A stretch of DNA of 64,000 nt from a bacterium. GTDB lineage: Bacteria > Patescibacteriota > Microgenomatia > Daviesbacterales > UBA10151. The position numbers were made by a program, and so were the translations under genes. Positions 17,089-50,948 of this stretch are shown in pieces. Each line of letters starts with the position of its first letter. Within the stretch, counting starts at the first letter, position 1. The stretch lies in NCBI GenBank assembly GCA_021786315.1, contig JAJYNN010000002.1, positions 100,160 to 164,159 on the forward strand. The letters run 5' to 3'. The notes below the pieces were generated by a model. It worked only from the letters and a program-made list of their open reading frames with translations, did not search any database and was not told the DNA's origin.

Positions 17089-18123
17089 ATGGATTTTCAA
17101 GACTTCCTAAAACAATCCGCTCAAGAGATAAATCAAGAGATAGATAGATCATTTGAAAAGTGGAGTCAGGAAGTGGAGTCAGTAAGCCCAAAGCTCACGG
17201 CTTTGAACAAAGCTTTTATCCAGGCCAATGAAGGGGGAAAAAGGATCCGGGGAGCTTTAATTAAACTAGGCTATGAACTTGCCGGGGGGAGTCCCACCAT
17301 GGAAATCCTCAAACCGGCAGCCGCTTTTGAGATTTTTCAGACCGCTATCTTAGCTCATGACGACATAGTTGATCTATCACCACTTCGAAGAGGTAAGCCT
17401 ACTGTCTATAAAGTTCTTGGGGGTAATCATTATGGAATTTCGCAGGCATTAACTTTAGGCGATGCGGGGTTTTTCTTGGCGGTGCGGCTCATTGCCGAAA
17501 CCGACTTTCCCGATTCCCGGAAAAATAAAGCCTTAGCCTTTTTTGCCCAGGCGATGCTGGAGACAGCGCTGGGTCAGATGCTGGATATTGAGTTACCTTA
17601 CCAAAAAGAGACCAGAAAAGAGGTTGACGCCTTAACAATTTTCCGCCTTAAGACAGCCCGCTATACCATTGTTGGCCCATTAGCGCTTGGGGCGATCTTA
17701 GGGGGAGCGGGGAAGAAGTTTTTAGAAGACGTAGAAAAGTTTGGCGAGGCTTTAGGGATAGCTTTTCAGATTCAGGATGACACCTTGGGGGTGTTTGGAG
17801 ATGAAAAAACCATCGGTAAATCTGTTACCTCAGATATTGAAGAGGGGAAAAATACTTTGCTGATTATCTATGCTTTGGACCGGGCGACCAAGGAGCAAAA
17901 GGTAGTACTTGATAAATACTACGGTAAAGGAAAAATTGGGGGAAAAGAGCTGGAAAAAATTAAGCAGGTATTTGTAGACACAGGCGCTTTGGAATATTCC
18001 CGGAAAAAGGCGATGGAATTGGTGACTGAAGCACTTTTGGTGATAGAGGGAATGGATATCTCTCCTGAGTATAAAAAACTACTTACTCAAATGGCAGATT
18101 TTCTAGTCAGAAGAGACAAGTGA
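17089..18123 (+). CDS. polyprenyl diphosphate synthase (trans-IPPS, GGPP/FPP synthase family)
   Basis: First Asp-rich motif LAHDDIVD and second FQIQDDTLG. Confidence 0.8.
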   Translation: MDFQDFLKQSAQEINQEIDRSFEKWSQEVESVSPKLTALNKAFIQANEGGKRIRGALIKLGYELAGGSPTMEILKPAAAFEIFQTAILAHDDIVDLSPLRRGKPTVYKVLGGNHYGISQALTLGDAGFFLAVRLIAETDFPDSRKNKALAFFAQAMLETALGQMLDIELPYQKETRKEVDALTIFRLKTARYTIVGPLALGAILGGAGKKFLEDVEKFGEALGIAFQIQDDTLGVFGDEKTIGKSVTSDIEEGKNTLLIIYALDRATKEQKVVLDKYYGKGKIGGKELEKIKQVFVDTGALEYSRKKAMELVTEALLVIEGMDISPEYKKLLTQMADFLVRRDK

Positions 18124-18715: not shown

Positions 18716-19249
18716 ATGAAAGCCTATCTTAAAGAAATTAAATTCGAGTCCAAGGATTACGCTTATTTTAAAAACTTAACCGACGAGGTAAAGGAAACTG
18801 TTAAACAATCCGGAGTCAAGCAGGGGATAGTGGTGGTCAATTCCAAACATACAACCTTAACCATCGTGGTTCAGGAAATCTCTGAACCGAATCTTTTAAA
18901 AGACATGCTTAACTTTGCCCTCACTTGTGTTCCCACTGACAGGCGGGCTTGGCAGGCCAAAAAGGAAGGTTTCAAGCACCCGACTTCTGACTATCTCCAC
19001 CGTTGCCAGGACAACCCTTTTTGCAACGAAATTGATGAGGATTACAATGCCCCTTCCCACATTCGCTCCATGCTCTATGGCCATCCTTCGGTTTTTATCC
19101 CCATTCAGGAGGGGAAGCCAGTTTTAGGGAAGTATCAGGAAGTGGCGGCGTTGGAATTTGACGGCCGGGACGGGACGGGTAAAAACCCAGTCCGCCAGAG
19201 AACTGTGCAAATTTGGATCTATCCTTTGGAAGAGGTTGTGACACTCTAA
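18716..19249 (+). CDS. YjbQ/UPF0047-family protein
   Basis: HTTLTIVVQE...PSHIRSMLYGHPSVFIPIQEGKPVLGKYQEV matches the conserved YjbQ core. Confidence 0.65.
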   Translation: MKAYLKEIKFESKDYAYFKNLTDEVKETVKQSGVKQGIVVVNSKHTTLTIVVQEISEPNLLKDMLNFALTCVPTDRRAWQAKKEGFKHPTSDYLHRCQDNPFCNEIDEDYNAPSHIRSMLYGHPSVFIPIQEGKPVLGKYQEVAALEFDGRDGTGKNPVRQRTVQIWIYPLEEVVTL

Positions 19250-21372
19250 GATTGAGATACTTGATAAACTTTGGTTTCCCCGGATTGGAAAATTACCTTG
19301 CCAAGTTCGGCGAACTTACTTTCCTGCAACCGCAGATATTTTTGTCTCTCCAGGGTGCCTATAAAAACGTAGGAAATATTGTATTTCTTAATTAACTCTT
19401 TGGTTAAGTTTAAATCCGGTGTTTCATATAAAGTTGTTACATCTTGTGACCTTCGGCCAGCTTCGTCATAAGAGCCCCGCCAGAGCCATTCATGGACCGG
19501 CCAGCCGATTACAGTTGGCAGTCCGGTATTGGAGGAAACCCGGGCAAAGTCAGTGTAGGAATCCCCCTGGCCCTCTAAAATTACCGGTTGGCCTTTGATA
19601 TTTTCCCGTAGCCACATAACTGCCTGATAATCAGTGGGGTAGAGGGTATAAAGGTAGTTTAAGCCGTTTAAGCCTTGATAATTTTCCAGGCCGCCGTAGT
19701 AGGAATTAACGCCGAAGATTGGGTAAATCCCGACTAAAAGGAAAAGCGGAATAAAGATTATATAGAATAGGATCTTTTTTAGTTCCATTATCCGGGTAAT
19801 CATATACCCGGAAATAAGGCCTAAGATAATGAAAGCCTGGTAACCAAGCTTAAAAACGGTGTTGGCCCGGTAGTGGGCAGGATAGATATCCTTAACGTAG
19901 AAAAACTCCGGGATCAGGATTAGGATAGTTGCCCCTAAAGCTAGGACTAAAACTAGATAATCAGAATTTACAATTTTAAATTTTAAATTTTCAAAGAATT
20001 TTTTAATTCTCAATTTTAAAACTAAGATCATAAAGCTAAAAATGACAAAGTAATAAAATCCCCAAAGAATCATTAACATCCACAGCGGGGATTTCATGCA
20101 GTGGTCAGGTTCAAAAAGAAACGGCCCAAGATGGCCTTTATCAACTAAGAACTGGGGAGCGCACAAGACTCCGATTCCCTGGCCAAAGGGGGCAAAAGCC
20201 AGCCAATAGGGTAGGGAAAAGATTACGGCCAGGAAGCTTAGAGGGATCATGACTTTAAATGTTTGCCAAAGTGATTTTTCTAAAGTATGGCCTTTTAAAG
20301 ATGAGAAGAAAAACAGTAATCCGGACACAAGAAGGTAGATCGGGCCGTCCAAAACGTTGGTCATCAAAGAGATCGATATCAGCAGTCCTAGAAGTAAAAT
20401 ATCCGTCAATCTAATCTTAGATTCAAAGAATATCTTAATGAGTAAGGCGATAGTCAAAAGGACAAAGGGGATATTTAAGACGTGGCCGTGCAAGTCAGCG
20501 ACAATAAATGAGTAGCTGGGGAATTCGTGGATGGTAAAAGGGATAAACCGGGTAGCGTTGGGGTACCAATAACCCTGGAGGTTAAAAGAGAAGGGTAACT
20601 GCCAGAAAGGAACCGGTTTATCGGGGGTGTAACTTTGGAAAAAGATATAAATGGTATGCAGGTTCCCTCCTAAAGTGACCAGGAAAGCGCTTAAAATGCC
20701 TGAAAGGTAGGAAAGTTTAGTAATTTGTGCTTTGAAACTGGAATAAAGGTTAAAACCAATGGAAAATGAGGCCGAAAGGCAGATGCCAAAAAGCGTGGCC
20801 AGAATTAAGTTATAGGAGATGCTGGGATCAAAGCCCGAGATTTTAGTCATGACCGCTCCAACAAGATGCCCGAAGTAATAATAATTAATAGAGAGAGGGG
20901 TCATCCAAAGGTCCCGGGGAGGGAAGTATCCGGTGCGGAGAATGGAATTGATGAAACCAAAGTCCATAAACTTTTCCAAGCCGTGGATGGAGGGTTCGTG
21001 GGCTCGGACAAAAGCCCAGAAGATCAACCCCCCTAAAAATAACCCTTCCTCAAGGGCATAAATCCTAAATTGCCCTAAAAGCGGGGGAAGTTTGAGCCGT
21101 TGTTTTTTTCCTCCCCAGATGATTGCCGAGTTAATCCCGATAAAAACCATCCAAATTAGAAACAACTCTAAGGTATTAAACGAAAAAATCCTTAAGCTTG
21201 AGAGAACCCAGGCGATGTAGCTTATTAACAAAACCCCGAGAATTTTCGATAAAGCATAGCCTTTGTCAAAAAAATTATGGAAGATTAAGCCGGTTAAAGG
21301 GAAAAATACGATACCGATTAAAAACCAAAGCAGCCACCACTGTAAAACATAGAAGACATCACCTAAATTCAT
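19246..21372 (-). CDS. large polytopic membrane protein (DUF2298-like, possible GT-C-type enzyme)
   Basis: 708 aa with more than 15 TM segments. It carries an in-frame AT-rich repeat copy (LKLRIKKFFENLKFKIVN). Confidence 0.5.
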   Translation of the reverse strand: MNLGDVFYVLQWWLLWFLIGIVFFPLTGLIFHNFFDKGYALSKILGVLLISYIAWVLSSLRIFSFNTLELFLIWMVFIGINSAIIWGGKKQRLKLPPLLGQFRIYALEEGLFLGGLIFWAFVRAHEPSIHGLEKFMDFGFINSILRTGYFPPRDLWMTPLSINYYYFGHLVGAVMTKISGFDPSISYNLILATLFGICLSASFSIGFNLYSSFKAQITKLSYLSGILSAFLVTLGGNLHTIYIFFQSYTPDKPVPFWQLPFSFNLQGYWYPNATRFIPFTIHEFPSYSFIVADLHGHVLNIPFVLLTIALLIKIFFESKIRLTDILLLGLLISISLMTNVLDGPIYLLVSGLLFFFSSLKGHTLEKSLWQTFKVMIPLSFLAVIFSLPYWLAFAPFGQGIGVLCAPQFLVDKGHLGPFLFEPDHCMKSPLWMLMILWGFYYFVIFSFMILVLKLRIKKFFENLKFKIVNSDYLVLVLALGATILILIPEFFYVKDIYPAHYRANTVFKLGYQAFIILGLISGYMITRIMELKKILFYIIFIPLFLLVGIYPIFGVNSYYGGLENYQGLNGLNYLYTLYPTDYQAVMWLRENIKGQPVILEGQGDSYTDFARVSSNTGLPTVIGWPVHEWLWRGSYDEAGRRSQDVTTLYETPDLNLTKELIKKYNISYVFIGTLERQKYLRLQESKFAELGKVIFQSGETKVYQVSQS
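19961..20030. repeat. AT-rich palindromic repeat family copy (in frame within membrane-protein gene)
   Basis: tcagaatttacaattttaaattttaaattttcaaagaattttttaattctcaattttaaaac. Confidence 0.55.
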
Positions 21373-21381
21373 GAATACATT

Positions 21382-22002
21382 TTACGGCAAATACCTTTGA
21401 ATTTCTGCAACTTGGGTAACGGGGATAATACCGGAAGGGACACTTGCCATTTTATGGGTTGGGTTGTACCAAAAAAACTTTGTTTTAGGGCAAGTTTTAT
21501 GGAGGTGTTTTAAAAGATCTAAGTCGTCATCAATGTAAAGATTAATTTTTAACCTCTTGATAGCTTTTTCCTTAAAAAGGTGGGGTTGCTCATTTTTGGT
21601 GTTGAGGTTGACTGAGGAAAAAACATCGGCCAGGTGGTATCTTCTTAAAAGCTTGTGGGTAATTTTTTCCAAGAATTTATAGCGGCTGGAAATCAGGTAA
21701 AGGTTATGGTGCTTATGGTTTTGGTGAAGCTCGTAAATAAAATTCGTATTGGTGGAAATCTTGGGCCGGAAAAGGTGGAAATGACTGATTTTACGGAGGG
21801 TCTGTTCGGTTTTGGAATGGGGAATACGGTAAGTCAAAGTTTTTTTATCGTGTCTTCTATATAACCAATCAATTAACCAGGCCGGGACAAAAGGGGGATA
21901 GTTTACTAAAACACGATCGAAGTCAAAACCGATGTTTTGGGGGACAAATCTGGACATATCGTCTTCCCTTTGTTGAGTCTTTTTCCCAGATTGTCCCTTC
22001 AT
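21382..22002 (-). CDS. HAD-superfamily-like hydrolase (putative)
   Basis: GFDFDRVLV (motif I, DxD) and YIDDDLDLL (motif IV-like). Confidence 0.4.
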   Translation of the reverse strand: MKGQSGKKTQQREDDMSRFVPQNIGFDFDRVLVNYPPFVPAWLIDWLYRRHDKKTLTYRIPHSKTEQTLRKISHFHLFRPKISTNTNFIYELHQNHKHHNLYLISSRYKFLEKITHKLLRRYHLADVFSSVNLNTKNEQPHLFKEKAIKRLKINLYIDDDLDLLKHLHKTCPKTKFFWYNPTHKMASVPSGIIPVTQVAEIQRYLP

Positions 22003-22004
22003 AT

Positions 22005-23084
22005 CTATTTCTCGCTTTGGGGATATGCCGTGAATAATTTACCCCAATCGGTTTTCAAAAATCTACCGGTTCTCCACCTGCCGAAGCGGTTCCACCAGTA
22101 CCTGTCATGATAAAAATTGGAGGCAAAATAGCTCCAGGGAACAATGGCTGACTGTAATAAAGCTTTTTCGACCCAAATAGGAGCATGATGGTAGATTAGC
22201 TTTTGGCCTTTGGAGGCTAAGGTATCGCGTTTTTTGTAGTGCCAATTAACTTTAGAGATGTCTTCGCCGACCACTGTAATCTTTTTCGGATCAGCAATTC
22301 CTAAGTTGCCTTCCTGGGCTAATTTTAAATAATCCAGTTTTAAGGGGTTAAAGCCCATCATCTTGGCGGCAATAGCATCAATTGAGACTAAATCCGAACT
22401 TGCCAGAAGGTACCCTTTTTCTTCCCACTCCATTGCCCGGGGTCCGGAACCCTTGCCGACAGTAGTGCCGTCCATAACGGCAAATCTTCCGGGATGGATC
22501 TCTTCCTGGATTGCCAGAAGGTCAACCAAAGTTTCGTGGATATTGCGGTGGGCGTAGTGGCGGGTAGTGCGCAGCATCCCAAAGTAATTTTTCATCGCTC
22601 CGGTGTTGGTGGTAAAGACATGCATCTTCATAGTGGGAAGGTGGATAATATTTTTGCCGACGATAATTTTAGGAAGTGAAATTTTATGGAAAACATTGCC
22701 CATAACCAGCATTTTGGATTTTGGGGTGTAATCCACATAAGGCTCATCGGTCAAAAAGTGCATCTTGACTCCATATTTTTTAAGGACCGGCAGCCATTTA
22801 TTATTAAAGGCGCCTTTTTCCACCTTGGTAACGACAGTGCGGTTTTCTACCGGGATAATATCTTTGGGTTTGACGCCGTCTTCAATTAAAGTTTTTAAGA
22901 CCGCTTCCAGTTGCCAGGGCCAGGAAGAACAAGCCGGATAAAATCTGGTCCAGGAAAGGTTGATTTTAATGACTGTGGGAACGGAAAGGTCGAAAGTTTT
23001 TAAATAGCCGGATTTGCGGAGGAGCTTTTGGTAATCGGAAATGATTGTATTGGGGCTGGCTTTGGAAACGTAAACTTTGCTCAT
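22005..23084 (-). CDS. hypothetical protein (DUF362-like)
   Basis: 359 aa with weak resemblance to DUF362. It lies inside the glycosyltransferase cluster. Confidence 0.35.
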   Translation of the reverse strand: MSKVYVSKASPNTIISDYQKLLRKSGYLKTFDLSVPTVIKINLSWTRFYPACSSWPWQLEAVLKTLIEDGVKPKDIIPVENRTVVTKVEKGAFNNKWLPVLKKYGVKMHFLTDEPYVDYTPKSKMLVMGNVFHKISLPKIIVGKNIIHLPTMKMHVFTTNTGAMKNYFGMLRTTRHYAHRNIHETLVDLLAIQEEIHPGRFAVMDGTTVGKGSGPRAMEWEEKGYLLASSDLVSIDAIAAKMMGFNPLKLDYLKLAQEGNLGIADPKKITVVGEDISKVNWHYKKRDTLASKGQKLIYHHAPIWVEKALLQSAIVPWSYFASNFYHDRYWWNRFGRWRTGRFLKTDWGKLFTAYPQSEK

Positions 23085-23105
23085 AATTTTAGTCTCTAGA
23101 AACTA

Positions 23106-24260
23106 GTGTATCATATACAAGTGCGCTTACTTTTTACAAGCACGTATTATTTGCCTTATATTTCCGGGTTAACGGTTTATATCTCCCGATTATCCGGTGA
23201 ACTAATTAAAAAGGGTTACCAAGTAAACATCCTGGCTTCCCAACATCAAAAAGATTTACCTTCGGAAGAGGATTATCAAGGAATAAAAGTTTTTCGTACT
23301 CCATATTTTTGGAGACTGAGTAAGGGTTTTATCTTACCCCTTTATCCTTACCATGTTTATAAACTTCTGCAAAATAACGATATCCTAATTATCAACCTTC
23401 CTCAATTTGAAGGGTTTGTTTCAGCTTTTATCGCCAAAATCTTAAAGAAAAAAATTATTTGTATTTATAACTGTGAGGTTTATTTGCCCAAGGGATGGGT
23501 AAATAGAGTAATTGAAAAGCTTCTGCTATTATCAACTTGGATCACCCTGCAACTGGCGGATCGTGTGGTAACCTATACCAAAGATTATGCCGAAAGTTCT
23601 AAGTTATTGCCCCAATTCTGGAAGAAAGTAACTTTTCTTTATCCTCCCATTCCGGCACCCAAAATTCAAATCTTGGCGAGAAAGAGGTTACTCAAAGGTA
23701 TTCCTCCGGCAACAAGGTATACCATCGGCTTTGCCGCTCGATTAACTGCTGAGAAAGGAATTGAGTATTTACTGGCTTCCATTCCCGGCTTAAGGAAGCG
23801 ACTAGGGGAAAACTTTATAATTTTATTTATCGGTCCCGAGCATCCGGTAGGGGAGGAGAAGTATTTTCGAAAAATCAAACCCTTAATGGACCAAAATAGA
23901 AAATATCTAAAATTTTTAGGAGTCTTACCGGCGGAGGAGATGGGCTCGTTTTACAGTCTGTTGGATGTGCTTATTTTGCCAAGCGTGAATTCCACAGAAG
24001 CTTTTGGGATGGTTCAGGTAGAGGCAATGATGCTGGGTGTTCCGGTCGTCGCCAGTGATTTGCCGGGTGTCCGTGTTCCCATACAGAAGACAGGTATGGG
24101 AAAAATTATTCCCATTAAAAATACCTCAGCTTTGGTCGAAGCGGTTGTTGATGTGCTTTTGCATAAGGAAAAATTTATTCGCAGCAGGGCAAAGGTGGAG
24201 AGTGAGTTTTCTTTAGACAAAACGATTAGGGATTATTTAGAGATACTGCGGGAAGATTAA
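23106..24260 (+). CDS. glycosyltransferase family 4
   Basis: EAFGMVQVEAMMLGVPVVASD matches the GT4 E-x7-E motif. Confidence 0.75.
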   Translation: MYHIQVRLLFTSTYYLPYISGLTVYISRLSGELIKKGYQVNILASQHQKDLPSEEDYQGIKVFRTPYFWRLSKGFILPLYPYHVYKLLQNNDILIINLPQFEGFVSAFIAKILKKKIICIYNCEVYLPKGWVNRVIEKLLLLSTWITLQLADRVVTYTKDYAESSKLLPQFWKKVTFLYPPIPAPKIQILARKRLLKGIPPATRYTIGFAARLTAEKGIEYLLASIPGLRKRLGENFIILFIGPEHPVGEEKYFRKIKPLMDQNRKYLKFLGVLPAEEMGSFYSLLDVLILPSVNSTEAFGMVQVEAMMLGVPVVASDLPGVRVPIQKTGMGKIIPIKNTSALVEAVVDVLLHKEKFIRSRAKVESEFSLDKTIRDYLEILRED

Positions 24261-26016
24261 TTGGGGCAACTTTTTGGAAAATGATGACCTTGGGGTGATC
24301 GTAAACGGTAAACATTTCATCAGCATAATCATCAATAATGTTTAGGCCAAAGTTGGGGCATGTGCTATTCTGGTGAGCGATAATTCCGTAGTTGGTAAAA
24401 GGCGGCCGTAAACAAATATGCAGAAAGGGAACGGGCAAAACTGGGCGGGAGGTAAATTCTGCCACTTTGGTAAAGCCCAACGATCCATCAAATAATGATT
24501 TATAGAATTGGTTAGTTTGCGGGTATTTTTCCGGTGACCGGGTGATGGAACCATAAAGGCGGTTACTGGACAAAATAATATAATTGGTTTGGTTTAAATT
24601 TTGGGCCATTTGTTCCCATTTCTGGCTGGTCTCAGAATCATAAAGAGGGAAACGGACTCCCTGATAAATGGAGGATGAATGCTGAGGCAGGTTGAGCGGT
24701 AGCGGATCATCCCAATATTCATAGGATATTTGTGAACCAGCAGGAATATTTTTATAGATCCATTCTGATGCCTGGACTCTGGTATGAGGTTGGGTGTAGA
24801 TAGAAACAAAAGATAAGGGCCAGATTAAGGCAAGAATGAGGAAAGATAATTTAATTGGCCTAGACAACTTGAGAGATTCTAAAAAGAAGGCGGTAAGGAT
24901 TAGCAAGGGGGGATAAAGTGGAAGAAAATATCGCATGGCTTTGGCAAACTGAATTCCCTGATAAAAAAAGACTGAGCCGGTAAAAGTTAGGAGCAGAAGG
25001 ATGGAATTTTGGGTAAACGAAAGCCGGAAGACCTGTAATTTAGTAGCAATTAAAACACGGAATGTCTTGATTGTGAGAGCCAGTGTCCCTAAAAAAGCCG
25101 CTATTCCCAGAGGTAAGCCTAAGCCCCAAAAAATAATATCCCGTAGGGGATAAAGAAGTGGTGTGGTGTGAAACCATTGGACAGAGGGAGGGTATGATGA
25201 GCTAGGCGAGGCCAAATTATTCAACTCCATAAGGCTTTTTAAAAGTGGAGTTAACGAGAGGTCAAAGATGGAAGTAGCCGAGAAAGCGTATGGATCGAAA
25301 ATACGGAAAGTAAGAAGCGCCAGTAGAAAAAAGACTGAATAATGGTAAAGAGTTCGGCGGCTGTTTTCTAAAAAAGAAGACAAAGCAACCAGAAGAAAAA
25401 CCGGAAGTAAGAGTAAGGCATTAATTTTAGAGGAAACCCCCAATCCAAATAATATGGCGGAAAAGATAATTAGCCACCAAGAAGGGCGAGTGAGGGTCAG
25501 AAGGAGCAGATAAAAGGCGGCCAGCATAAAAAAATTAGTGAAAGTGTCAACAGTAAAGAAATGAGCTTGTTGGATGGGTAAAACTGCAACGGTGTACAGT
25601 AATGCTGCCAGAAGCCCTGCTTTAGAGGAAAAAGCCTTCTTTCCGATGAGAAAAACTATAACCACTGTTCCTAAATCAAATAAACCGGACAGAGCTCGGC
25701 CCATAAGGACCAGATGGTCATAATCTGTCAAGTTGAGGATTTGAGCCGCCGCTTTAACTAAAAAGAGAGGAAAAGTGCCATAAACAAAGAATGGAAAGTT
25801 TTTATTGGCCGGATTTAAAGGAGAAATCGGGGTAGAAAAATATTCCGGAATACTTTTGGGCCATTCGAGAGCCTCAGTAACCATAGTCAAAAATCTTTCA
25901 TCAGGATGAAGATGCTGGTTTTGGTCCCAATTTAAGCCGTAAAAACGGAGTGTGGCCGCCAGTATCAAAATCAATGAAAGTTGTAAAAGGTGGTTAGTTT
26001 TCCAAAAGTTGGCCAT
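24226..26016 (-). CDS. GT-C fold glycosyltransferase, PMT/ArnT-like (GT39/GT83-type)
   Basis: First-loop LRFYGLNWDQNQHLHPDERF contains the DE motif. More than 10 TM segments plus a C-terminal soluble domain. Confidence 0.55.
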   Translation of the reverse strand: MANFWKTNHLLQLSLILILAATLRFYGLNWDQNQHLHPDERFLTMVTEALEWPKSIPEYFSTPISPLNPANKNFPFFVYGTFPLFLVKAAAQILNLTDYDHLVLMGRALSGLFDLGTVVIVFLIGKKAFSSKAGLLAALLYTVAVLPIQQAHFFTVDTFTNFFMLAAFYLLLLTLTRPSWWLIIFSAILFGLGVSSKINALLLLPVFLLVALSSFLENSRRTLYHYSVFFLLALLTFRIFDPYAFSATSIFDLSLTPLLKSLMELNNLASPSSSYPPSVQWFHTTPLLYPLRDIIFWGLGLPLGIAAFLGTLALTIKTFRVLIATKLQVFRLSFTQNSILLLLTFTGSVFFYQGIQFAKAMRYFLPLYPPLLILTAFFLESLKLSRPIKLSFLILALIWPLSFVSIYTQPHTRVQASEWIYKNIPAGSQISYEYWDDPLPLNLPQHSSSIYQGVRFPLYDSETSQKWEQMAQNLNQTNYIILSSNRLYGSITRSPEKYPQTNQFYKSLFDGSLGFTKVAEFTSRPVLPVPFLHICLRPPFTNYGIIAHQNSTCPNFGLNIIDDYADEMFTVYDHPKVIIFQKVAPINLPAVSLNNP

Positions 26017-27676
26017 TTTTTAAACCCTTTAAGATATCAACTTTTTTAAAGACCCTAATAACCGGGTGGTCAAAGACACTCCAGGTTTCTTCGGCCGTTT
26101 CATCCGGAAACTCTATTTTGTAACCTAAAAGCGAGATGGTGGGATAAGAGGTAAATTCCTTAATTTTGGAAAATCCCAATTGCCCGGAAAAAAGCGCCTG
26201 ATAAAAAGCAGCGGTTTTGGGAAATTTCTTTGGGTTGTGATCCAAAAAGATTCGCCGGCTTTCGATGATTATATAGTCAGCAGTTTGGAGGTCGTCTATT
26301 ACCTGAAACTGGACTTGAGAGTTATTCTCATAGTTATAAAAATTAGCTGAAACCCGCCGGAAGTTACCCTCCAGGGGCAAATCTACCATGTTTCCCTCCT
26401 CCACAAAAAAGGTAGAGTTGGGGTTGGCATGGGAAAGCAGCCAATTGGAGGCGGTAGTTCTGACGTCCTGATTTATATAAATGGAAAAGAAGGCCAACAG
26501 TAAAACCGAATTAAGAATTAGGAATGAAGAATTTAGAATTAGGGAGAAATGTTTGTGGATTTTTAGTTGAGAAAGTTTGTAAAGAAAAAAAGCTGCAAAG
26601 ATAGCGAAAAAGGGGAAAGTGGGGGCAACAAAGCGGGTCCACTTGGCAAAAAGGAAGGCGTTGGGGAGGAAGAGGGATAAGAAGCCAGTAATAAGGAGCA
26701 TGGGATATGTAGTAAGGGATACGGATTTGGATTTGAAGATAGAGTAAATTATTAAGAAAAAGCCAAGGAACCCGAATAAAAGAAGAGGCAGGCCGAGGGC
26801 AAAAGGGTAAATTTTGGTTAGCTGGAAAATTACAGGAGTAGTGCCGATAAATTGCCGGGTGTAAAAGACCGGCAAGCTACCGGCAGCCAAAGAGCTTTCA
26901 TACTTAAAGCTTGATAGAAAATGGGGAAAGTCTAAAAAAAGATAGGGGTCAACTGCGAACAAAATCAGTCCCGTAATAATTACACTTAAAACCAGACCAA
27001 GAATCATTTTGGAAGATTTCGGCCGGTATTTGAGAATAATAGCTAAAGCTAAAGTGATTCCAAAAAATGCTCCGCTTACTTTTACCCCTAAAGCGAGTCC
27101 AAGGAAAATAGAGGCTAAAGCAATAGGGGATAAGGACAGAAATGATATTTGGGAGAACCTGGAAATATGGGAGTCGGGAGTACCGGTAAATTTTAAAAGG
27201 AAGTAGAGGGATGCCAGTAAAAAGAAAATTAGGTTTGATTCCGGGGTGGCAAAGTGGGCTTGTTGGATTAATCCCGGAGTGAGGGCTGTGAGGGTAGCTG
27301 CCAGCAGGGCATAACCTTCGGGAAGAAACTTCCGGCTGATTTTGTAAACCAAAAAGATAGTCAGGGTAGAAAAAAGGGCGGAATAGAAACGCCCGACCAA
27401 AAAATAATTTAAATTGGCAAAATTAGAGTAGAGGGAGGAAAGAAAAGCTTTGGTAAAGTACATTAGATAGATGGTGACAGTGCCATAGGAAAAAAAGTGG
27501 GGGTTCATTTGGGCGGGGAAGGAGAGCTGGTTGGCTGAAATAACCAGGTGGTATTCATCGGGGTGGGTAAATAAACCTTGGCCCCAGTCTAATTTATAAA
27601 ATCTGAGTAATCCTCCCAGAATTAAAATTAGAGCTAAAATTAAGTGGGTTCTGTTAATTTGCCTCATAAATTTCAA
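25994..27676 (-). CDS. GT-C fold glycosyltransferase, PMT/ArnT-like (paralog of upstream gene)
   Basis: LRFYKLDWGQGLFTHPDEYH gives the same architecture. It carries an in-frame AT-rich repeat (FSLILNSSFLILNS). Confidence 0.55.
   Translation of the reverse strand: MKFMRQINRTHLILALILILGGLLRFYKLDWGQGLFTHPDEYHLVISANQLSFPAQMNPHFFSYGTVTIYLMYFTKAFLSSLYSNFANLNYFLVGRFYSALFSTLTIFLVYKISRKFLPEGYALLAATLTALTPGLIQQAHFATPESNLIFFLLASLYFLLKFTGTPDSHISRFSQISFLSLSPIALASIFLGLALGVKVSGAFFGITLALAIILKYRPKSSKMILGLVLSVIITGLILFAVDPYLFLDFPHFLSSFKYESSLAAGSLPVFYTRQFIGTTPVIFQLTKIYPFALGLPLLLFGFLGFFLIIYSIFKSKSVSLTTYPMLLITGFLSLFLPNAFLFAKWTRFVAPTFPFFAIFAAFFLYKLSQLKIHKHFSLILNSSFLILNSVLLLAFFSIYINQDVRTTASNWLLSHANPNSTFFVEEGNMVDLPLEGNFRRVSANFYNYENNSQVQFQVIDDLQTADYIIIESRRIFLDHNPKKFPKTAAFYQALFSGQLGFSKIKEFTSYPTISLLGYKIEFPDETAEETWSVFDHPVIRVFKKVDILKGLKNGQLLEN
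26508..26552. repeat. AT-rich palindromic repeat family copy (in frame, minus-strand gene)
   Basis: gaattaagaattaggaatgaagaatttagaattagggag. Confidence 0.6.
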
Positions 27677-27691
27677 ATTTAAAATTGAAAA

Positions 27692-29044
27692 TTAGTTTTC
27701 ATGGTTTATTAATTCCGCCACCTGTTCACCCATTTCGATGGCGTAGTTTGTCCCCCGGTCCCAAGGATAAACCATATCCATATTGGCGGTATAAACATTT
27801 GGGAGGGGAGAATGAAACTTGGGGATCAGGTCTTGATAGTTAGTGGTGACTACTGGTTGGGCAAAGGGAGCGGGAAAAAGATAGGGGTTAGGGGTTAGTA
27901 GTTGGTAGTTAGGATTAATTTTTTTTAGATATGGATCATAAACTTTTAAGAGCTGTTGGGCGGACATTTTAAGGTAAGGATGATCATTGGGCAGGTAATT
28001 ACCGACATATAAAATATGCTCGTTACTGTAGTTTTTTGGCGACATGAAGTTGGTGTGCTCGGCTAAAACCAGGAAAGGGAAGCTTTTATCGGTGATATTT
28101 AGCCAATATGTATCTTTTAAAAACGGTTTCTTGAGGGTTAAAATAAGGTTTAAGGCAGACAGGTGGGGAATTGATTTGGCCTTGTCCATATATGATTTAG
28201 GCAACCCCGGAGCGATTTTGGTAAAGACCGGAGTGGGTAGGGTGGAAAGGACAATATCCCCGGAAAAGACCCCTTTGTCGGTTAATATCTCGTAGTAATT
28301 TTTCTTGTGCTTAAGCTCCAAAATATCAGCTTTGAGAACAATTTGTCTCCCCAGCTTTTCGATCCTTTGGGCAATCTTATCGGCAAAAACCTGGAATCCT
28401 CCCTCAGGGTAGGCAAGTGACGGAGTGCGTTTTTTAATTCTGGCCCAGAACCACGAAAGAGCAATTTCTTCCTTAAAATCCCCAAATTTACCCTGGAACA
28501 AGGGTTCCCAGATCGTTTCGGTTGATTTTTGGCCCATATACTTTCTTAACCAGGGTAGGGCTTTCCTGCGGCTTAAGCTGTCCGGATTGGCAATATATCT
28601 TAAATAGGCGGTAACCAAACCCATTCTTAACTTATCAATCATTGGCAAGTAGGGGAATTGGAGTATGGAGATAGGGGAATCTAAGGGGAGAAAATTATTC
28701 TGGATATAGACATCAGTGCTGGGTCTGACAGTAATTACCGGGTGGTTTAACTCTTTTGCCAGTCCTAAAGCACAATTGTCGCTGGTAAACCAATGATGGT
28801 AAGCTTTTTCTAAAGTCCAATCCCATCCTGGTTTTTTAAACCCACCGGCTAATCCTCCCACCTCCGGTTCTTTTTCGATGACGGTAACCTCGAAACCTTG
28901 TTGCAGAAGCCGTAAAGCTGCTGTGAGTCCGGTAAACCCTCCACCTAAGATAACCACTTTCATTAAATGTATTGTACCAATTTTTCCCAAGAAATCTTGC
29001 TTATCCTTGTGGTCGGAAACTTTTTTTGGTAGACTGTGGGGCAT
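27692..29044 (-). CDS. FAD-dependent oxidoreductase (amine oxidase / phytoene desaturase superfamily)
   Basis: N-terminal Rossmann VVILGGGFTGLTAALRL...VIEKEPEVGG (GxGxxG...E). Confidence 0.6.
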   Translation of the reverse strand: MPHSLPKKVSDHKDKQDFLGKIGTIHLMKVVILGGGFTGLTAALRLLQQGFEVTVIEKEPEVGGLAGGFKKPGWDWTLEKAYHHWFTSDNCALGLAKELNHPVITVRPSTDVYIQNNFLPLDSPISILQFPYLPMIDKLRMGLVTAYLRYIANPDSLSRRKALPWLRKYMGQKSTETIWEPLFQGKFGDFKEEIALSWFWARIKKRTPSLAYPEGGFQVFADKIAQRIEKLGRQIVLKADILELKHKKNYYEILTDKGVFSGDIVLSTLPTPVFTKIAPGLPKSYMDKAKSIPHLSALNLILTLKKPFLKDTYWLNITDKSFPFLVLAEHTNFMSPKNYSNEHILYVGNYLPNDHPYLKMSAQQLLKVYDPYLKKINPNYQLLTPNPYLFPAPFAQPVVTTNYQDLIPKFHSPLPNVYTANMDMVYPWDRGTNYAIEMGEQVAELINHEN

Positions 29045-29747
29045 GGCTCAACCTAAAACTGACCATATTCCTCAACACATTGCCATTATTATGGACGGCA
29101 ACCGCCGCTGGGCCAGGCTTCGGGGTTTACCGGACACTAGAGGGCATCAGGCAGGGACAGAAGCTTTAGAAAAGACGCTGGAAGCGGCTGCCAAGATAGG
29201 TGTGAAGACACTGACTGTTTATGCACTCTCCACGGAAAATATCCAGGAAAGAGCCAAACGGGAAGTTTCCGGCATCTTTCAAATTTTAAGGAGCGGTTAC
29301 CGGCATAAATTAAAAAAAATGATGCAAAGGGGAGTTAAGGTGGCCATATTAGGGGAGCTTGAAGGCTTACCTTTAACTGTCCGCCGGATTATCGAAGAGA
29401 TTAAAAAAACTGTTATCCAAAATGAATCCATTAAACTCAATATCGCCCTAAATTACGGAGGGAAGAGGGAGTTAATTGAGGCCATTAAAGATATCGTCAA
29501 AGAGGGTGTGGATGTCAGTAGGATTAACGAGAATACAATCGACAACCACCTGTACACTAACGGTCAGTCCGACCCCGAGTTGGTCATCCGGACTGGTGGC
29601 CGTATCAGGTTATCCAACTTTTTGCTTTGGCAAACAGCTTACTCTGAACTCTACTTTACCAAAACACTTTGGCCGGATTTTGGCCCGGCTGATTTGAAAA
29701 AGGCCATTACTTGGTACCAAAAACAAAAAAGAAACTTCGGCAAGTGA
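29043..29747 (+). CDS. uppS: undecaprenyl/polyprenyl diphosphate synthase (cis-IPPS)
   Basis: HIAIIMDGNRRWA...RGH..G...TVYALSTEN. Start set at the Met of MAQPK; the longer ORF from 28878 overlaps the divergent gene. Confidence 0.85.
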   Translation: MAQPKTDHIPQHIAIIMDGNRRWARLRGLPDTRGHQAGTEALEKTLEAAAKIGVKTLTVYALSTENIQERAKREVSGIFQILRSGYRHKLKKMMQRGVKVAILGELEGLPLTVRRIIEEIKKTVIQNESIKLNIALNYGGKRELIEAIKDIVKEGVDVSRINENTIDNHLYTNGQSDPELVIRTGGRIRLSNFLLWQTAYSELYFTKTLWPDFGPADLKKAITWYQKQKRNFGK

Positions 29748-29754
29748 TTTGTCG

Positions 29755-31644
29755 CTACTGGACTTCACTCCAGATTGTCAGGTCCCTGGCAAAAATATCC
29801 TTCAGAATAACCAAATATTTAGGCATGTAATTAATCTGTTCAGCCGGATCAGTATTATGTCCGTTGGAGCGGACAAACTGGGGAGGTTGGTTGGGGTTTA
29901 AAGAAATGACACTTCCGTTAATGGTTAATTGGGGAGCATTGGTACCTGCTGGGACGCAGTTGATGGAAATTAAATTACCGGTAGAGGCGCTACAGAAAGG
30001 TGTAGTAGTGCCGTTACCATAACTAATGAAGAACCCTTCGACTGGTTTAGCGCTCCCGCCCATATTTTTATCAATATAAACGGTGCCTTTGACAACAAAA
30101 ACCAGCCCTGAGGCTCCGCCGCCGTAGACGAATTTATTGCTGGGAGTATTAAGGAGTAAATTGCCATCCACAAAAATGACACCTGTTTTGGTATCGGTTG
30201 CCTGTAACTCGGAATTAACTGTTAGGTTTCCGGTGATATGGTAAAGCTGGTTGCTGCTACTCAAATCAAAAATCCGGTGAGCGTTGTCATAAGATCTATC
30301 TCCGGAGAGGGTGTTGCCTGCCGGGGGGGCGGGTTTGGCTTGGGAATAATAGAGCGAGAGAACCTCGTCGTAGCTGGGTATAGAAAATTGGGGGACGGAA
30401 GCGGGGTTGCCGATAAGGCATCTGGTTGAGGAGAAGTTGTTTTTCTTTGTTGAATCAACTAAAGATAAAAACCCGTTTCCGACTTGAATAGGGGTTGACC
30501 CGCTTGGACAGCTTGGGTCTTGAGGAGCTTGAAAAGGCACAAATGGAGTGGGAGTAGGGGTAGGGGTAGGGGTGGGAGTGGGAGTAGGGGTAGGGGTAGC
30601 ACAAACAGGAATAGAAAAAGAGTTGGAATTACTGTGGGTTCCGTTATAAAGCCTTACATAATAAGTGGCATTGGGTTGGAGGGAAGGGGAACTGCTAAAG
30701 CCGGTAGGGGCTGGGGTACTGCTGCTGCCTGAGACATTTTTATTCCAATAAGAGCTAAAGCTGCTGTTGCTGCTGATATCTGCCCAGCTAACGGGAACTC
30801 CCGGATTAGTCCAGGAGATAGTGACTTGACTCCCGGAGTAGGGTCCGGTGACACAGCTGACGTTTGTTCTAATTGATGGGGTTGGAGGAGCAATCAAAGA
30901 ATAAGAAAAGTTGTAACTGTTGTCTACGGACATATCATTACTGGGGGTAAGGCCACATCCGTCAGGGCTGGCATATTTGCCAGCAATCTGGCATTCGTAA
31001 CTTCTGTTTGGTCCGCCATAGCCGCTTAAAGAGGGGCTCCTCAGGCAGAAACCTAAACCGGCGTTAATGTTTGGGTAGCTGAAGTACCCGCTGGAGTTTG
31101 TTGTGGCCAGGCCAATATTGCACTGAGGCGGTGGCCAAGGGACCCCTGCCCTGAGTTCCGCCCCCTGGTTGATTACTACTCCCCCGATACCATTGCCGGT
31201 GACGGAGTCGGTAACTCTACCGGTTAAAGTTAGGCGGCAACCACTAATGGTTTTTGGTGATCCGCTGATTAGGGCATTATTACCGCTACCAATGTTAATA
31301 CCGTAAGCGTAGATATTGTGGGAGTTACCGTCCTTTAACCAGTCGGGAGTGGTAAAAGTGAAGCCGTGGGCACCGGTGCTTCCACAAACACCGGCATTCA
31401 CCAAATCCTGGCGGAAGATATTGGCTGTGGTTGCGCCTACCCAGGTATTGTTATCTGTGTAAAAGTGGACATCAATAGATTGGTTGTTATTGTCACCATC
31501 GCATGCCCAGCCGGCAAAGTTGGAACAATTGGCAGCGTCTAAATAACCATAAGGATCCGCAGCTAATGCTGGGGTAGGGGAAACGATAAAAAAAGCAGAA
31601 GCTAATATAAAAAATAGAAGTGGCAGAAAAAGGTCAATTTTCAT
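29755..31644 (-). CDS. secreted protein with (PT)n linker
   Basis: Signal peptide MKIDLFLPLLFFILASAFFIVSPTPALA. TPTPTPTPTPTPTPTPTP linker. Gly/Asn-rich beta-type C-terminal region. Confidence 0.55.
   Translation of the reverse strand: MKIDLFLPLLFFILASAFFIVSPTPALAADPYGYLDAANCSNFAGWACDGDNNNQSIDVHFYTDNNTWVGATTANIFRQDLVNAGVCGSTGAHGFTFTTPDWLKDGNSHNIYAYGINIGSGNNALISGSPKTISGCRLTLTGRVTDSVTGNGIGGVVINQGAELRAGVPWPPPQCNIGLATTNSSGYFSYPNINAGLGFCLRSPSLSGYGGPNRSYECQIAGKYASPDGCGLTPSNDMSVDNSYNFSYSLIAPPTPSIRTNVSCVTGPYSGSQVTISWTNPGVPVSWADISSNSSFSSYWNKNVSGSSSTPAPTGFSSSPSLQPNATYYVRLYNGTHSNSNSFSIPVCATPTPTPTPTPTPTPTPTPFVPFQAPQDPSCPSGSTPIQVGNGFLSLVDSTKKNNFSSTRCLIGNPASVPQFSIPSYDEVLSLYYSQAKPAPPAGNTLSGDRSYDNAHRIFDLSSSNQLYHITGNLTVNSELQATDTKTGVIFVDGNLLLNTPSNKFVYGGGASGLVFVVKGTVYIDKNMGGSAKPVEGFFISYGNGTTTPFCSASTGNLISINCVPAGTNAPQLTINGSVISLNPNQPPQFVRSNGHNTDPAEQINYMPKYLVILKDIFARDLTIWSEVQ
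30540..30600. repeat. simple repeat (ggggtaggggtaggggtgggagt...) encoding the PT linker
   Basis: A 6-nt periodic direct repeat is visible in the sequence. Confidence 0.7.
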
Positions 31645-31719
31645 TAGCAGAGTTTAGGTCTGAGACTACTTCATTATGCCAATATATGAAGTTGTTTTGC
31701 AAGCTAAGTTGATCGAAGA

Positions 31720-32625
31720 TTATTGATTTGAATGGACATCTCCGCCTCTAACCTTTAAATAGGCCGGCATAGCTGTTGGGGTTGGGGTGGGTGTCGGGGT
31801 TGGAGTTGGGGTGGGTGTCAGAGTTGGGGTGGGTGTCGGGGTTGGAGTTGGGGTGGGAGCAATGATTTGGTAGGTTGTGGATTTGGAACACAGAGGTGAG
31901 CAATTACTGAAGCTGCCCTGGCAGACTTTCCAGGTATGAGTCCAGGTGTAAGTGCCGGTGATAGACGCCGTACAGGTGGTATTATTCCAAGATCCGCTGC
32001 AATTACTGACTCCCGGACGGGTATCGCCAATCCAGGTAGATGCATCACCGGTGATATTGAAGGTCATATTGCGCCCGGGAGTTTGCGTGTTGGGAGAAAC
32101 GGAGAGGGAAACCTGATTTGTGTTGCAACTAATGCTGGTGGGTTGGGGAGGAGGGCAATCTCCCGAATACCAGACAATAAACCCTTCGGGGATACCACAC
32201 GTCCAGGGACTTTGCCAGTTGCCGCCGTTGCGGCAATTATGGTCAAAGGAGTCAATTTGGTAAGTTCTGCCGCAGGTAGCTCCGGCAAAACTTTGTGAGG
32301 TGCTCCAACTGGATTCATGTTCAGTACAGTTGGTTTGTTTGCCGTTGCACCAATAGAGAACGGTGCTGTTGCCGGTTCCGGAGCGGCTCCAGCAGGTTCC
32401 GCTGCCGAGATTACAGGGAGCGGCACAACCCCCGTTGGCGTTATAGACACCGTTGTCGAAACCGTTGATGTTCCCGTCACCACCACTGCCGTCGTTGGTA
32501 AAACCACAAATTTTAGTGTAGTAGCCGCTACCGTAATTGGTGGTAGCGTAAACTACGCCGATTGAGGCCATCAGTATTAATACTGCCACAGGAATAGAAG
32601 CTAATTTAAAATACTTTTTTAACAT
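31720..32625 (-). CDS. secreted Cys-rich protein with C-terminal (PT)n tail
   Basis: Signal peptide MLKKYFKLASIPVAVLILMASIGVVYA. More than 20 Cys. PTPTPTPTPTPTLTPTPTPTPTPTPTPT. Confidence 0.5.
   Translation of the reverse strand: MLKKYFKLASIPVAVLILMASIGVVYATTNYGSGYYTKICGFTNDGSGGDGNINGFDNGVYNANGGCAAPCNLGSGTCWSRSGTGNSTVLYWCNGKQTNCTEHESSWSTSQSFAGATCGRTYQIDSFDHNCRNGGNWQSPWTCGIPEGFIVWYSGDCPPPQPTSISCNTNQVSLSVSPNTQTPGRNMTFNITGDASTWIGDTRPGVSNCSGSWNNTTCTASITGTYTWTHTWKVCQGSFSNCSPLCSKSTTYQIIAPTPTPTPTPTPTLTPTPTPTPTPTPTPTAMPAYLKVRGGDVHSNQ
31775..31862. repeat. simple repeat encoding the (PT)n tail
   Basis: ggggttggggtgggtgtcggggttggagttggggtgggtgtc... Confidence 0.7.
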
Positions 32626-32627
32626 TT

Positions 32628-33332
32628 TTAAAATCTAAACGTCTCCGGTGTAACTTTTGCCGGCTGCCAACTGACTCCGTTACTTATTTTATAGAGCATA
32701 AAAACAAAAGACTTATTATTAAATTCCGGAATAGGCAAACCGCTGGCAGTCGTGATCTCTTCGGCTGCTTTGACATCTCTTTCCTTAAACTGGACTTTGC
32801 CCCGGATATAATATGTAGCCTGAAGGCCTTTTTGGTTATCAGTTAAAGTCAGGATTGTCATATTGGGAACGTTTTTAAAGGCCGGAAGCTGTTCCAAAGT
32901 GCCATCAAAGGCAGCAAAGATCGGGGTCCCTTTGGCCAATTGCCCGGAAACGGAGCTTTCCCGGTACTCTCCTTTTTGGCAGAAATCAGGAAGAGATGGA
33001 CAAATAAACGGCCCTTTCTGTAAGTTTGCGTCATACCTGCCTGATGGTGTAGGTGCCGGGGTGGTAACTAATTGTTCAGAAGAGGACTTAATTTTAACAG
33101 TATAAAAATAATAAGCCCCTGCCAAAAGAAGCATCATAGAAGCTATTAAAATTAGGGCGGGTTTACTTAAGAAGCGGTTCTTCCCGTCGTTAACATTGTA
33201 ACTTTCAACAACCGGAGGGGTAGGGGGTAGGGATTGAGAAGTGGTATCAGAAGGGACAGGTTGCGGATCCACCTCTTTATGATAGCCATGTCTATGGGTA
33301 TTTTTCAAGTGTTTGGGCGCAGTTTTACTCAT
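32628..33332 (-). CDS. membrane-anchored hypothetical protein (first gene of secreted-protein operon)
   Basis: Single TM helix (ALILIASMMLLLAGAYYFYTV) followed by a periplasmic domain. Confidence 0.45.
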   Translation of the reverse strand: MSKTAPKHLKNTHRHGYHKEVDPQPVPSDTTSQSLPPTPPVVESYNVNDGKNRFLSKPALILIASMMLLLAGAYYFYTVKIKSSSEQLVTTPAPTPSGRYDANLQKGPFICPSLPDFCQKGEYRESSVSGQLAKGTPIFAAFDGTLEQLPAFKNVPNMTILTLTDNQKGLQATYYIRGKVQFKERDVKAAEEITTASGLPIPEFNNKSFVFMLYKISNGVSWQPAKVTPETFRF

Positions 33333-34883: not shown

Positions 34884-36341
<1,458 letters not shown>

Positions 36342-37382: not shown

Positions 37383-37457
37383 GGGCGCATGGCTCAGTGG
37401 TAGAGCGCGTCACTGATAATGACGAGGTCCATGGTTCGATCCCATGTGCGCCCACCA
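37383..37457 (+). tRNA. tRNA-Ile (anticodon GAT), CCA encoded
   Basis: GGGCGCA/TGCGCCC acceptor, D-arm GCTCAGTGGTAGAGC, anticodon loop CTGATAA, T-loop TTCGATC, then ACCA. Confidence 0.85.
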
Positions 37458-42895: not shown

Positions 42896-42935
42896 ATTGA
42901 CATCTCCCCAAAATCCATCTAATCTGGATATATCG

Positions 42936-47303: not shown

Positions 47304-47376
47304 GGGCCCGTAGTTCACCCGGTAGAACGCATCATTTGCAATGATGAGGTAAGCGGTTCGAGTCCGCTCGGGTCCA
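47304..47376 (+). tRNA. tRNA-Ala (anticodon TGC)
   Basis: GGGCCCG/CGGGTCC acceptor (one G-U), anticodon loop TTTGCAA, T-loop TTCGAGT. No encoded CCA. Confidence 0.8.

Positions 47377-48072: not shown

Positions 48073-48112
<40 letters not shown>

Positions 48113-50914: not shown

Positions 50915-50948
<34 letters not shown>

Follow-up and report, generated by a model that had tools for sequence, protein, structure and literature searches.

A 64,000-bp window of a Microgenomatia genome (Patescibacteriota; Daviesbacterales; contig JAJYNN010000002.1, positions 100,160–164,159, assembly GCA_021786315.1) encodes an island of membrane sugar transferases beside secreted proteins with Pro/Thr-rich (PT) linkers. 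A tandem pair of membrane proteins (GT-C A and GT-C B) and a DUF2298 protein are confidently assigned, from predicted structures and profile matches, to glycosyltransferase-like proteins of the GT-C fold. Gene fusions are strong evidence that GT-C A and DUF2298 cooperate. The island very probably specifies an extracytoplasmic glycosylation machine dependent on polyprenyl-phosphate-linked sugars, and this conserved transferase set most likely coats the cell surface with sugar. The PT-rich stalks of the neighboring secreted proteins are possibly glycosylated by it. A sequence-only reading of the same DNA had proposed a candidate protein O-glycosylation system with two PMT/ArnT-like enzymes. The conserved GT-C island stands, its synteny with PT-protein genes largely does, orthology to PMT does not, and a protein acceptor is tentative.

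Proteins of the window were identified by Pfam and NCBIfam profile scans (Table 1). All genes listed in the sequence-only reading were present, and the scans confirmed them, including the DUF362 assignment; the DUF2298 protein belongs to PF10060, not to PF09852 as had been given. The island is a coherent conserved system of three GT-C-fold membrane enzymes, cytoplasmic helpers and carrier-lipid genes. The UppS start codon was adopted from the gene call in related locus L001, and the protein scores above the curated TIGR00055 cut-off (109.55 bits). The position of the trans-polyprenyl diphosphate synthase gene beside YjbQ and DUF2298 is kept in Daviesbacteria loci L085–L090. The GT-C B stop and the GT-C A start overlap by 23 nt, and the two proteins are 28% identical over their full length. 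The closest PDB relatives of the GT4 enzyme are sucrose-phosphate synthase, MshA and PimA. The 206-aa protein had no match in Pfam, NCBIfam or PDB searches; in an alignment of 27 homologs, HAD motifs I–IV (DxDGV with D27 and D29; S/T; K144; D159) are conserved. A promoter and terminator scan of 18.5–34 kb found no excess of terminator-like sites over shuffled sequence and gave no basis for drawing operon boundaries.

Table 1. Coordinates, strands and profile evidence for the island, its carrier-lipid genes and the adjacent secreted proteins.
Feature	Coordinates	Strand	Evidence
trans-Polyprenyl diphosphate synthase (context gene; would supply the carrier-lipid primer)	17089–18123	+	Pfam polyprenyl_synt 203 bits
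DUF2298/Chlor_Arch_YYY membrane protein, C-terminal soluble domain	19246–21372	-	PF10060 325 bits; TIGR03662 512 bits
HAD-like putative phosphatase, 206 aa	21382–22002	-	HAD motifs in 27-sequence alignment
DUF362 protein	22005–23084	-	PF04015 93.6 bits
GT4 (GT-B fold), cytoplasmic nucleotide-sugar-dependent glycosyltransferase	23106–24260	+	Glycos_transf_1 86.7 bits; Glyco_transf_4 40.5 bits
GT-C A, first-loop HLHPDERF, C-terminal soluble domain	24226–26016	-	PMT_2 46 bits; PMT 27.4 bits
GT-C B, paralog of GT-C A	25994–27667	-	PMT 49.8 bits
FAD-dependent amine-oxidase/CrtI-HpnE-PPOX-type flavoprotein	27692–28963	-	Amino_oxidase 107 bits; PRK07233 379 bits
UppS cis-prenyltransferase, polyprenyl diphosphate carrier synthesis	29007–29747	+	Prenyltransf 258.5 bits; TIGR00055 240.8 bits
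Secreted 629-aa protein: signal peptide, Cys-rich N-terminal domains, (TP)9 linker, conserved C-terminal module	29755–31644	-	
Secreted 301-aa Cys-rich protein, terminal 30-residue PT linker and tail ...GGDVHSNQ	31720–32625	-	
234-aa protein, N-terminal membrane anchor, short TTPAPTPSG stretch only	32628–33332	-	

Structure models of GT-C A (AlphaFold; predicted local distance difference test [pLDDT] 88.9, predicted template modeling score [pTM] 0.91) and of the DUF2298 protein (AlphaFold2; pLDDT 85, pTM 0.90) both have the GT-C fold. As expected of the GT-C superfamily, the multi-transmembrane fold comes with an acidic residue that is conserved in the first loop on the outer side. The HPDERF motif of GT-C A and the HPDEYH motif of GT-C B, both noticed earlier, were recovered, and D39 and E40 of this loop are invariant across 37 homologs. 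The C-terminal soluble alpha/beta domain of GT-C A resembles the globular domain of AglB and contains invariant E-x-WDD (EYWDD here) and DHP motifs. The DUF2298 protein is a full-length member of TIGR03662 (residues 8–705; cut-off 300.25 bits), and its YYYxG motif (N163-Y164-Y165-Y166-F167-G168) is invariant in the family alignment. Its Foldseek top matches are DPY19, AftA, AftD, AftB and ArnT, together with the C-terminal domain of AglB. By hhalign (76% probability), GT-C A and DUF2298 can be aligned with each other over the last transmembrane helices and the C-terminal domain. Single-sequence PDB searches with GT-C A, GT-C B and DUF2298 gave nothing useful, and PDB profile searches for DUF2298, DUF362 and the HAD-like family returned noise only.

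The GT-C pair had been likened to PMT enzymes, and both proteins do exceed the Pfam PMT (PF02366) cut-off of 22.7 bits. The matches are partial, covering model positions 68–242 of 245 in GT-C B and 86–221 in GT-C A, and PMT_2 scores equal or exceed PMT scores on the pair. No PMT_4TMC or MIR domain was found in GT-C A or GT-C B by Pfam scan. Pmt1 was the sole match of the GT-C A family profile among PDB sequences, and a weak one (E = 1.2e-4). In structural comparison, the pair is equally distant from ArnT, ALG9/12, PMT and STT3. An acidic first-loop residue is common among many GT-C families, so the Asp-Glu motif does not discriminate PMT. The absence of PMT_4TMC and MIR, the C-terminal alpha/beta domain and the equidistant structures therefore place GT-C A and GT-C B in a separate family within the GT-C superfamily; they are neither PMT orthologs, ArnT nor Emb/Aft members. 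Pfam Arabinose_trans and Emb gave no matches for the island GT-Cs.

Strict PMT orthology was rejected on domain architecture and on the structural ranking, in which the pair is no closer to PMT than to other GT-Cs. An ArnT/lipid A reading was likewise rejected: there is no ArnT NCBIfam match, and neither ArnC nor ArnA occurs in the window. Lipid A is not known from bacteria of the candidate phyla radiation (CPR), which are generally considered to lack it.

Two further roles for the GT-C proteins were considered. STT3 and AglB are the Foldseek top matches of GT-C A and GT-C B (E ~3e-8) over the whole length, C-terminal domain included. These matches, and the invariant E-x-WDD after the last transmembrane helices, could indicate an oligosaccharyltransferase-like enzyme that moves a glycan en bloc from polyprenyl diphosphate to Asn or Ser/Thr. 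Oligosaccharyltransferases carry WWDYG after the last transmembrane helices; this motif is not present here, EYWDD standing instead, and no STT3 match was found in Pfam or NCBIfam, leaving the fold similarity at superfamily level. The UbiA and GT2 enzymes associated with the island in relatives make monophosphate-linked single sugars, not diphosphate-linked oligosaccharides, and such a role is very improbable.

The second role is translocation. One of the three GT-C-like proteins might not be a transferase but carry the lipid-linked sugar to the other membrane face, a role put forward for Agl23 of archaea (TIGR03663, PMT_2-like). GT-C A has a weak match to TIGR03663, named "flippase activity-associated protein Agl23" in NCBIfam, and no dedicated flippase gene was noticed in the window. 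In liposomes, purified Agl23 from Haloarcula moves lipid-linked oligosaccharide across the membrane (PMC11182771). The GT-C A score of 18.1 bits lies far under the family cut-off of 126.25 bits, however, and GT-C B has no match. The first-loop Asp-Glu, invariant here, is a usual mark of catalytic GT-Cs, and some related loci encode candidate flippases of the LPG_synthase_TM type. We consider translocation improbable.

Scanning a collection with a single genome for each species yielded at least 584 stretches matching DUF2298/TIGR03662 and the HLHPDERF GT-C family. From these and metagenomes, 164 related loci (84 genome loci and 80 metagenome loci, numbered with the prefix L) were analyzed. A core of GT-C A, with or without GT-C B, DUF2298 and GT4, often with the HAD-like protein, is conserved in these loci, so the grouping of these genes is not mere coincidence. 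Phyla with the core are Patescibacteria, Chloroflexota and Acidobacteriota, along with Desulfobacterota-labeled and other metagenome-assembled genomes. Among the 84 genome loci, 54 encode GT4, 44 DUF2298, 32 the HAD-like protein, 27 GT-C B, 28 a third PMT_2 GT-C, 28 a SAM methyltransferase and 17 the flavoprotein; these counts are lower bounds because many contigs end early. GT-C B lies directly upstream of GT-C A in 27 of the 84, and the HAD-like gene adjoins GT4 in 28 of the 32 loci that carry it. DUF362 keeps its position in Daviesbacteria L088 and L089 and is found no more than 10 kb away in L150 and in the Chloroflexota loci L052 and L074. Many loci (L005, L006, L009, L015 and others) are labeled "uncultured Gammaproteobacteria bacterium"; they have a Microgenomates-typical gene order and 40–49% identity to the CPR protein, and the label looks like a placeholder.

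GT-C A and DUF2298 form a single polypeptide in three non-CPR loci (L062:9974–13783, L078:7146–10925 and L079:9926–14197). These proteins are 1259–1423 aa long, with PMT_2 at the N-terminus and DUF2298 at the C-terminus, and are 29–43% identical among themselves. The three fusions indicate that GT-C A and DUF2298 work together. Other sampled non-CPR loci, including Chloroflexota, contain 1250–2480-aa open reading frames (ORFs) that open with a GT-C A domain and are known from their N-terminal part alone.

Genes for sugar supply were found beside the island in relatives. In 22 loci, the gene immediately preceding GT-C B encodes a UbiA protein that scores above the NCBIfam cut-off for decaprenyl-phosphate phosphoribosyltransferase (NF008978; 221.9 bits, cut-off 207). 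A PAP2 phosphatase occurs in 13 loci, usually accompanying UbiA and placed next to DUF2298, and a GT2 resembling dolichyl-phosphate (Dol-P)-hexose synthase occurs in 10 of the 84. Because the donor genes of relatives are those of a UbiA-type phosphoribosyltransferase plus PAP2, or else of a GT2, a sugar other than mannose could be transferred. In the 64-kb window itself, hmmsearch detected no UbiA, PAP2, LCP or GT2 polyprenyl-phosphate-sugar synthase; the polyprenyl-phosphate-mannose synthase expected as partner of a PMT system is thus missing there, and the donor synthase must lie elsewhere in the genome. No DprE1 or DprE2 was found. The co-location of lipid-carrier synthesis noted earlier holds for UppS beside this island; UppS adjacency is confined to Daviesbacteria and one other locus.

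The flavoprotein gene always has a neighbor whose product functions in making or loading polyprenyl phosphate. In five Daviesbacteria genomes this neighbor is UppS, in five loci it is UbiA, and in L062 and L078 it is GT2. Its relatives in the NCBIfam scan (CrtI, HpnE and PPOX) act on lipophilic substrates. From these neighbors and substrates, we infer that the flavoprotein modifies the carrier lipid or the lipid-linked sugar. The idea that the HAD-like protein and PAP2 are interchangeable was weakened. They co-occur in only one locus (L009), but the HAD-like gene is co-oriented with GT4 and PAP2 with DUF2298.

The three secreted proteins encoded upstream of UppS had been described as carrying long (PT)n linkers. 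A PT scan of the translations located such linkers in the 629-aa protein (residues 348–367) and the 301-aa protein (residues 255–284); the 234-aa protein has only its short stretch. The three proteins have no homologs in 80 species-level loci and find them only among close Daviesbacteria relatives; none was found for the 234-aa protein in the related loci. The C-terminal module of the 629-aa protein is 36–44% identical to the product of the gene directly upstream of UppS in L086, L087, L089 and L090. In L086, L087 and L089, the preceding gene ends in a PT linker and a GGD(V/T)H.N. tail, like the 301-aa protein. The proposed synteny was thus largely borne out: PT-linker homologs precede the row from UppS and the flavoprotein to DUF2298 in four of five related Daviesbacteria loci.

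The tail itself, L-K-x-x-G-G-D-V/T-H-x-N-Q/K-stop, follows the PT linker at 31720–31790 in the window and in L086:2369–3199, L087:1088–2767 and L089:172–843. The gene encoding it always precedes the gene for the 629-aa-type C-terminal module. In the window 629-aa protein, upstream-type domains, linker and C-terminal module are fused in one polypeptide. The tail may be a processing or sorting tag. In many Microgenomates loci, PT-stalk proteins end in sortase-like signals, LP[x][AS]G...GFLILL or LPKTG with a hydrophobic tail (L009:6843–8123, L013:6472–7368, L021:6225–7448, L037:6635–7669, L057:4993–6000 and L075:4974–6365).

In other Microgenomates and in three non-CPR lineages, this upstream position is filled by PT-rich surface proteins that are not related to those of the window. 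In L062, L078 and L079, a 115–198-aa protein with a signal peptide, PT repeats and a C-terminal transmembrane segment with a basic tail heads or directly precedes the operon; the gene order in L062 and L078 is PT protein, flavoprotein, GT2, DUF2298 and GT-C A::DUF2298. PT-rich genes make up 22 of 333 island-adjacent genes and 4 of 381 farther ones in the genome set (odds ratio 6.7, Fisher p = 7e-5), and 13 of 232 adjacent and 0 of 190 farther genes in the metagenome set (p = 4e-4); these statistics are inflated because the tests ignore shared ancestry and one syntenic block dominates. By our count, PT neighbors occur in about five independent lineages.

In the favored explanation, the carrier lipid would be made by UppS and the trans-prenyl synthase, and the flavoprotein would then modify the carrier or the lipid-linked sugar. 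The sugar would be loaded by a polyprenyl-phosphate-sugar synthase encoded outside the window, the counterpart in relatives being a UbiA-type, phosphoribosyl pyrophosphate-dependent enzyme with PAP2, or a GT2. In the cytoplasm, a precursor would be worked on by GT4, the HAD-like phosphatase and DUF362. Outside the membrane, sugars would be transferred by GT-C B and GT-C A, which probably form a pair, and by DUF2298; the three probably work as one complex. The acceptors would most likely be Thr/Ser of Pro/Thr-rich linkers and stalks, for example of the proteins encoded directly upstream. Such residues of secreted surface proteins are the leading candidates for the acceptor, preferred to a wall or lipid glycan, but the assignment is tentative and falls somewhat short of probable.

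Several observations weigh against protein acceptors. No structural or sequence feature links GT-C A and GT-C B to protein-acting rather than lipid- or glycan-acting GT-Cs. The 64-kb window has no donor synthase, and PT-rich neighbors are missing beside the module in the Chloroflexota loci sampled. The PT enrichment is due mostly to a single long block of Microgenomates synteny (MurJ-PilN-PilO-Big13-...-LCP-UvrD-FemAB), in which unrelated genes are found too. Daviesbacteria L087 (8760–12142) and L090 (8766–12127) have the UppS-flavoprotein-DUF2298 row and keep the PT-protein genes, and GT-C A and GT-C B are absent from the locus; the DUF362 and HAD genes are likewise not between UppS, the flavoprotein and DUF2298. 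The neighbors LCP, MurJ, FemAB and UbiA/PAP2 are equally consistent with a wall polymer, and the gene set (GT4, methyltransferase, epimerase and three to four GT-Cs) exceeds known simple O-mannosylation systems.

The same machine and donors could instead serve a non-protein envelope glycan, either a peptidoglycan-linked secondary polymer or a membrane-anchored lipoglycan, in an assembly like that of arabinogalactan or lipoarabinomannan (LAM). GT4 would then prime a cytoplasmic lipid acceptor, the GT-Cs would extend it outside from polyprenyl-phosphate pentofuranose or hexose, and the PT proteins would be merely co-located. The UbiA and PAP2 proteins of relatives speak for this; we take them to be counterparts of Rv3806c and Rv3807c of the decaprenylphosphoryl-arabinose pathway. 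So do the LCP ligase, MurJ and FemAB genes flanking the island in Microgenomates, the structural likeness of DUF2298 to AftA, AftD and AftB, the complex glycan suggested by several GT-Cs with GT4, methyltransferase and epimerase, and the Chloroflexota loci without PT neighbors. The flanking wall genes are weak evidence, however, because they lie in a long syntenic block that also holds UvrD, and LCP, UbiA and PAP2 are all missing from the window. An envelope glycan also leaves unexplained the PT-only mini-proteins inside GT2-DUF2298-GT-C operons of three divergent non-CPR lineages, and the independent PT-protein families that fill the same slot in Daviesbacteria and in other Microgenomates. 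We regard it as a serious rival, somewhat less likely than a protein acceptor.

Glycosylation of PT stalks can also be stated in a stronger form. GT-C A, with or without GT-C B, and DUF2298 would constitute an uncharacterized protein O-glycosyltransferase complex shared across phyla (CPR, Chloroflexota, Acidobacteriota and Desulfobacterota). It would build glycans on the PT stalks of surface proteins with a C-terminal anchor, including "mucin- or extensin-like" PT-only carriers from the same operon, using polyprenyl-phosphate pentofuranose or hexose donors, with the flavoprotein as a new modifier of the carrier lipid or lipid-linked sugar. This full version is unlikely.

Known systems were compared with the island. 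PMT/POMT enzymes (GT39, acting with Ppm1/DPM1; actinobacterial Pmt acts on Pro/Thr-rich regions) share with it the GT-C fold, the first-loop Asp-Glu, above-threshold PMT/PMT_2 matches (partial for PMT), the Pmt1 profile match and PT-rich candidate acceptors, and the tandem paralogs recall Pmt1-Pmt2 heterodimers. They differ in that the C-terminal alpha/beta domain of the island enzymes replaces PMT_4TMC and MIR, no Ppm1-like GT2 is in the window, relatives have the UbiA-type pentose-phosphate donor route, and the island GT-Cs are always partnered with DUF2298. ArnT (GT83) differs in that GT-C A carries the extra C-terminal domain.

By analogy, the nearest functional precedents are streptococcal Pgf and GtrB/PgtC2, whose GT-C enzymes glycosylate regions rich in Ser/Thr; genes for the adhesin substrates lie within the Pgf cluster itself (PMC11092751). 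Pgf (PgfS, PgfE, PgfM1 and PgfM2) and GtrB/PgtC2 resemble the proposed system in the monoderm host, the undecaprenyl-phosphate-linked sugar made by a GT-A enzyme, and the one or two GT-Cs acting on extracytoplasmic disordered regions. Their GT-Cs belong to the YfhO family, with no DUF2298, flavoprotein, GT4 or HAD partners. Also close is Pseudomonas aeruginosa TfpW, which adds D-arabinofuranose oligomers to pilin (bioRxiv 10.1101/2020.04.19.049825). As described, it is a GT-C beside type IV pilus genes that modifies Ser/Thr of a surface protein with a UbiA-type pentofuranose donor pathway, and many Microgenomates loci read PilN-PilO-surface protein-UbiA-GT-C B-GT-C A. The island differs from it in having another flavoprotein class instead of DprE1/DprE2, and neither UbiA nor pilus genes stand beside the island in the window.

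The mycobacterial arabinogalactan/LAM system (Rv3806c UbiA, Rv3807c PAP2, DprE1/E2, AftA-D, EmbA-C, the GT4 enzymes PimA/PimB, and Lcp1) recurs in part in island relatives, which combine UbiA, PAP2, several GT-Cs and GT4 with an LCP neighbor, and its AftA, AftD and AftB are among the DUF2298 structural matches. The differences are the absence of Arabinose_trans/Emb matches and of DprE1/E2 from the island, and the lack of a mycolate envelope in CPR and Chloroflexota, where the island genes occur. In archaea and Chloroflexi, TIGR03662 is presumably partnered with the PMT_2-like TIGR03663 protein (Agl23), as TIGRFAM curators hold, and the set includes the Agl22 Dol-P-hexose synthase. Agl23 is implicated in Dol-P-hexose use for N- and O-glycans. 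The island DUF2298, itself a TIGR03662 member, is likewise paired with a PMT_2-like GT-C, but GT-C A and GT-C B are not TIGR03663 members.

Elsewhere in the window, a second GT4 gene (2970–4109), reported earlier, is present. A secreted enzyme called "GH5-like" (42879–45200) does carry the TPTATPTPIPT linker, but its label derives from sub-threshold matches (Glyco_hydro_cc, E = 4.6e-4; Dockerin, E = 3.5e-4). No tie of either gene to the island was found except the common window. Upstream of the island and apparently unrelated to it are genes for an ATP-dependent DNA ligase (11809–13542), a stand-alone GGDEF protein (11000–11662, reverse strand) and a Fic-domain protein (9932–11008). The rRNA genes are unlinked: 16S (34884–36338) and tRNA-Ile (37383–37457) lie about 10 kb from tRNA-Ala (47304–47377), 23S (47576–51374) and 5S (52377–52493). 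Protein genes between the two parts include GH18, an S11 carboxypeptidase, phosphoglycerate kinase, a secreted 773-aa protein and glyceraldehyde-3-phosphate dehydrogenase. The 23S match extends about 870 nt beyond the Rfam model length and contains a LAGLIDADG endonuclease ORF (49755–50366; 92 bits); the extra segment is probably a group I intron. The rRNA cluster is closely followed by a gene (54300–54641, reverse strand) for a small protein assigned to PF05635 (61 bits), the "23S rRNA intervening sequence protein" family. A 3021-aa ORF (54681–63746, reverse strand) has 22% Ser+Thr and a Peptidase_S74 (endosialidase chaperone) domain at residues 2598–2655, and by these features looks like a fiber-type surface protein. 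A Peptidase_S74 protein is also encoded upstream of UppS in L090.

GT-C-dependent extracytoplasmic glycosylation is known as such; the combination of families, the fusion, the flavoprotein and the PT-carrier proteins are not described in the literature searched. For DUF2298 and its GT-C partner family, essentially no literature was found, the search for DUF2298, PF10060 and TIGR03662 returning one table annotation and one database listing. Synteny, fusion, sugar-supply genes and recurrent PT-rich anchored proteins together suggest a concrete, testable function for the DUF2298 family, which, if true, would be its first. It would also add a fourth bacterial lineage of GT-C protein O-glycosylation beside PMT, YfhO-type enzymes and TfpW. 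A cultured Chloroflexota species with the module, if one exists, would provide an experimental route that CPR organisms do not offer. If proteins are the acceptors, the island would give CPR bacteria, whose way of life depends on touching the surfaces of other cells, a glycoprotein coat relevant to host attachment and phage resistance.

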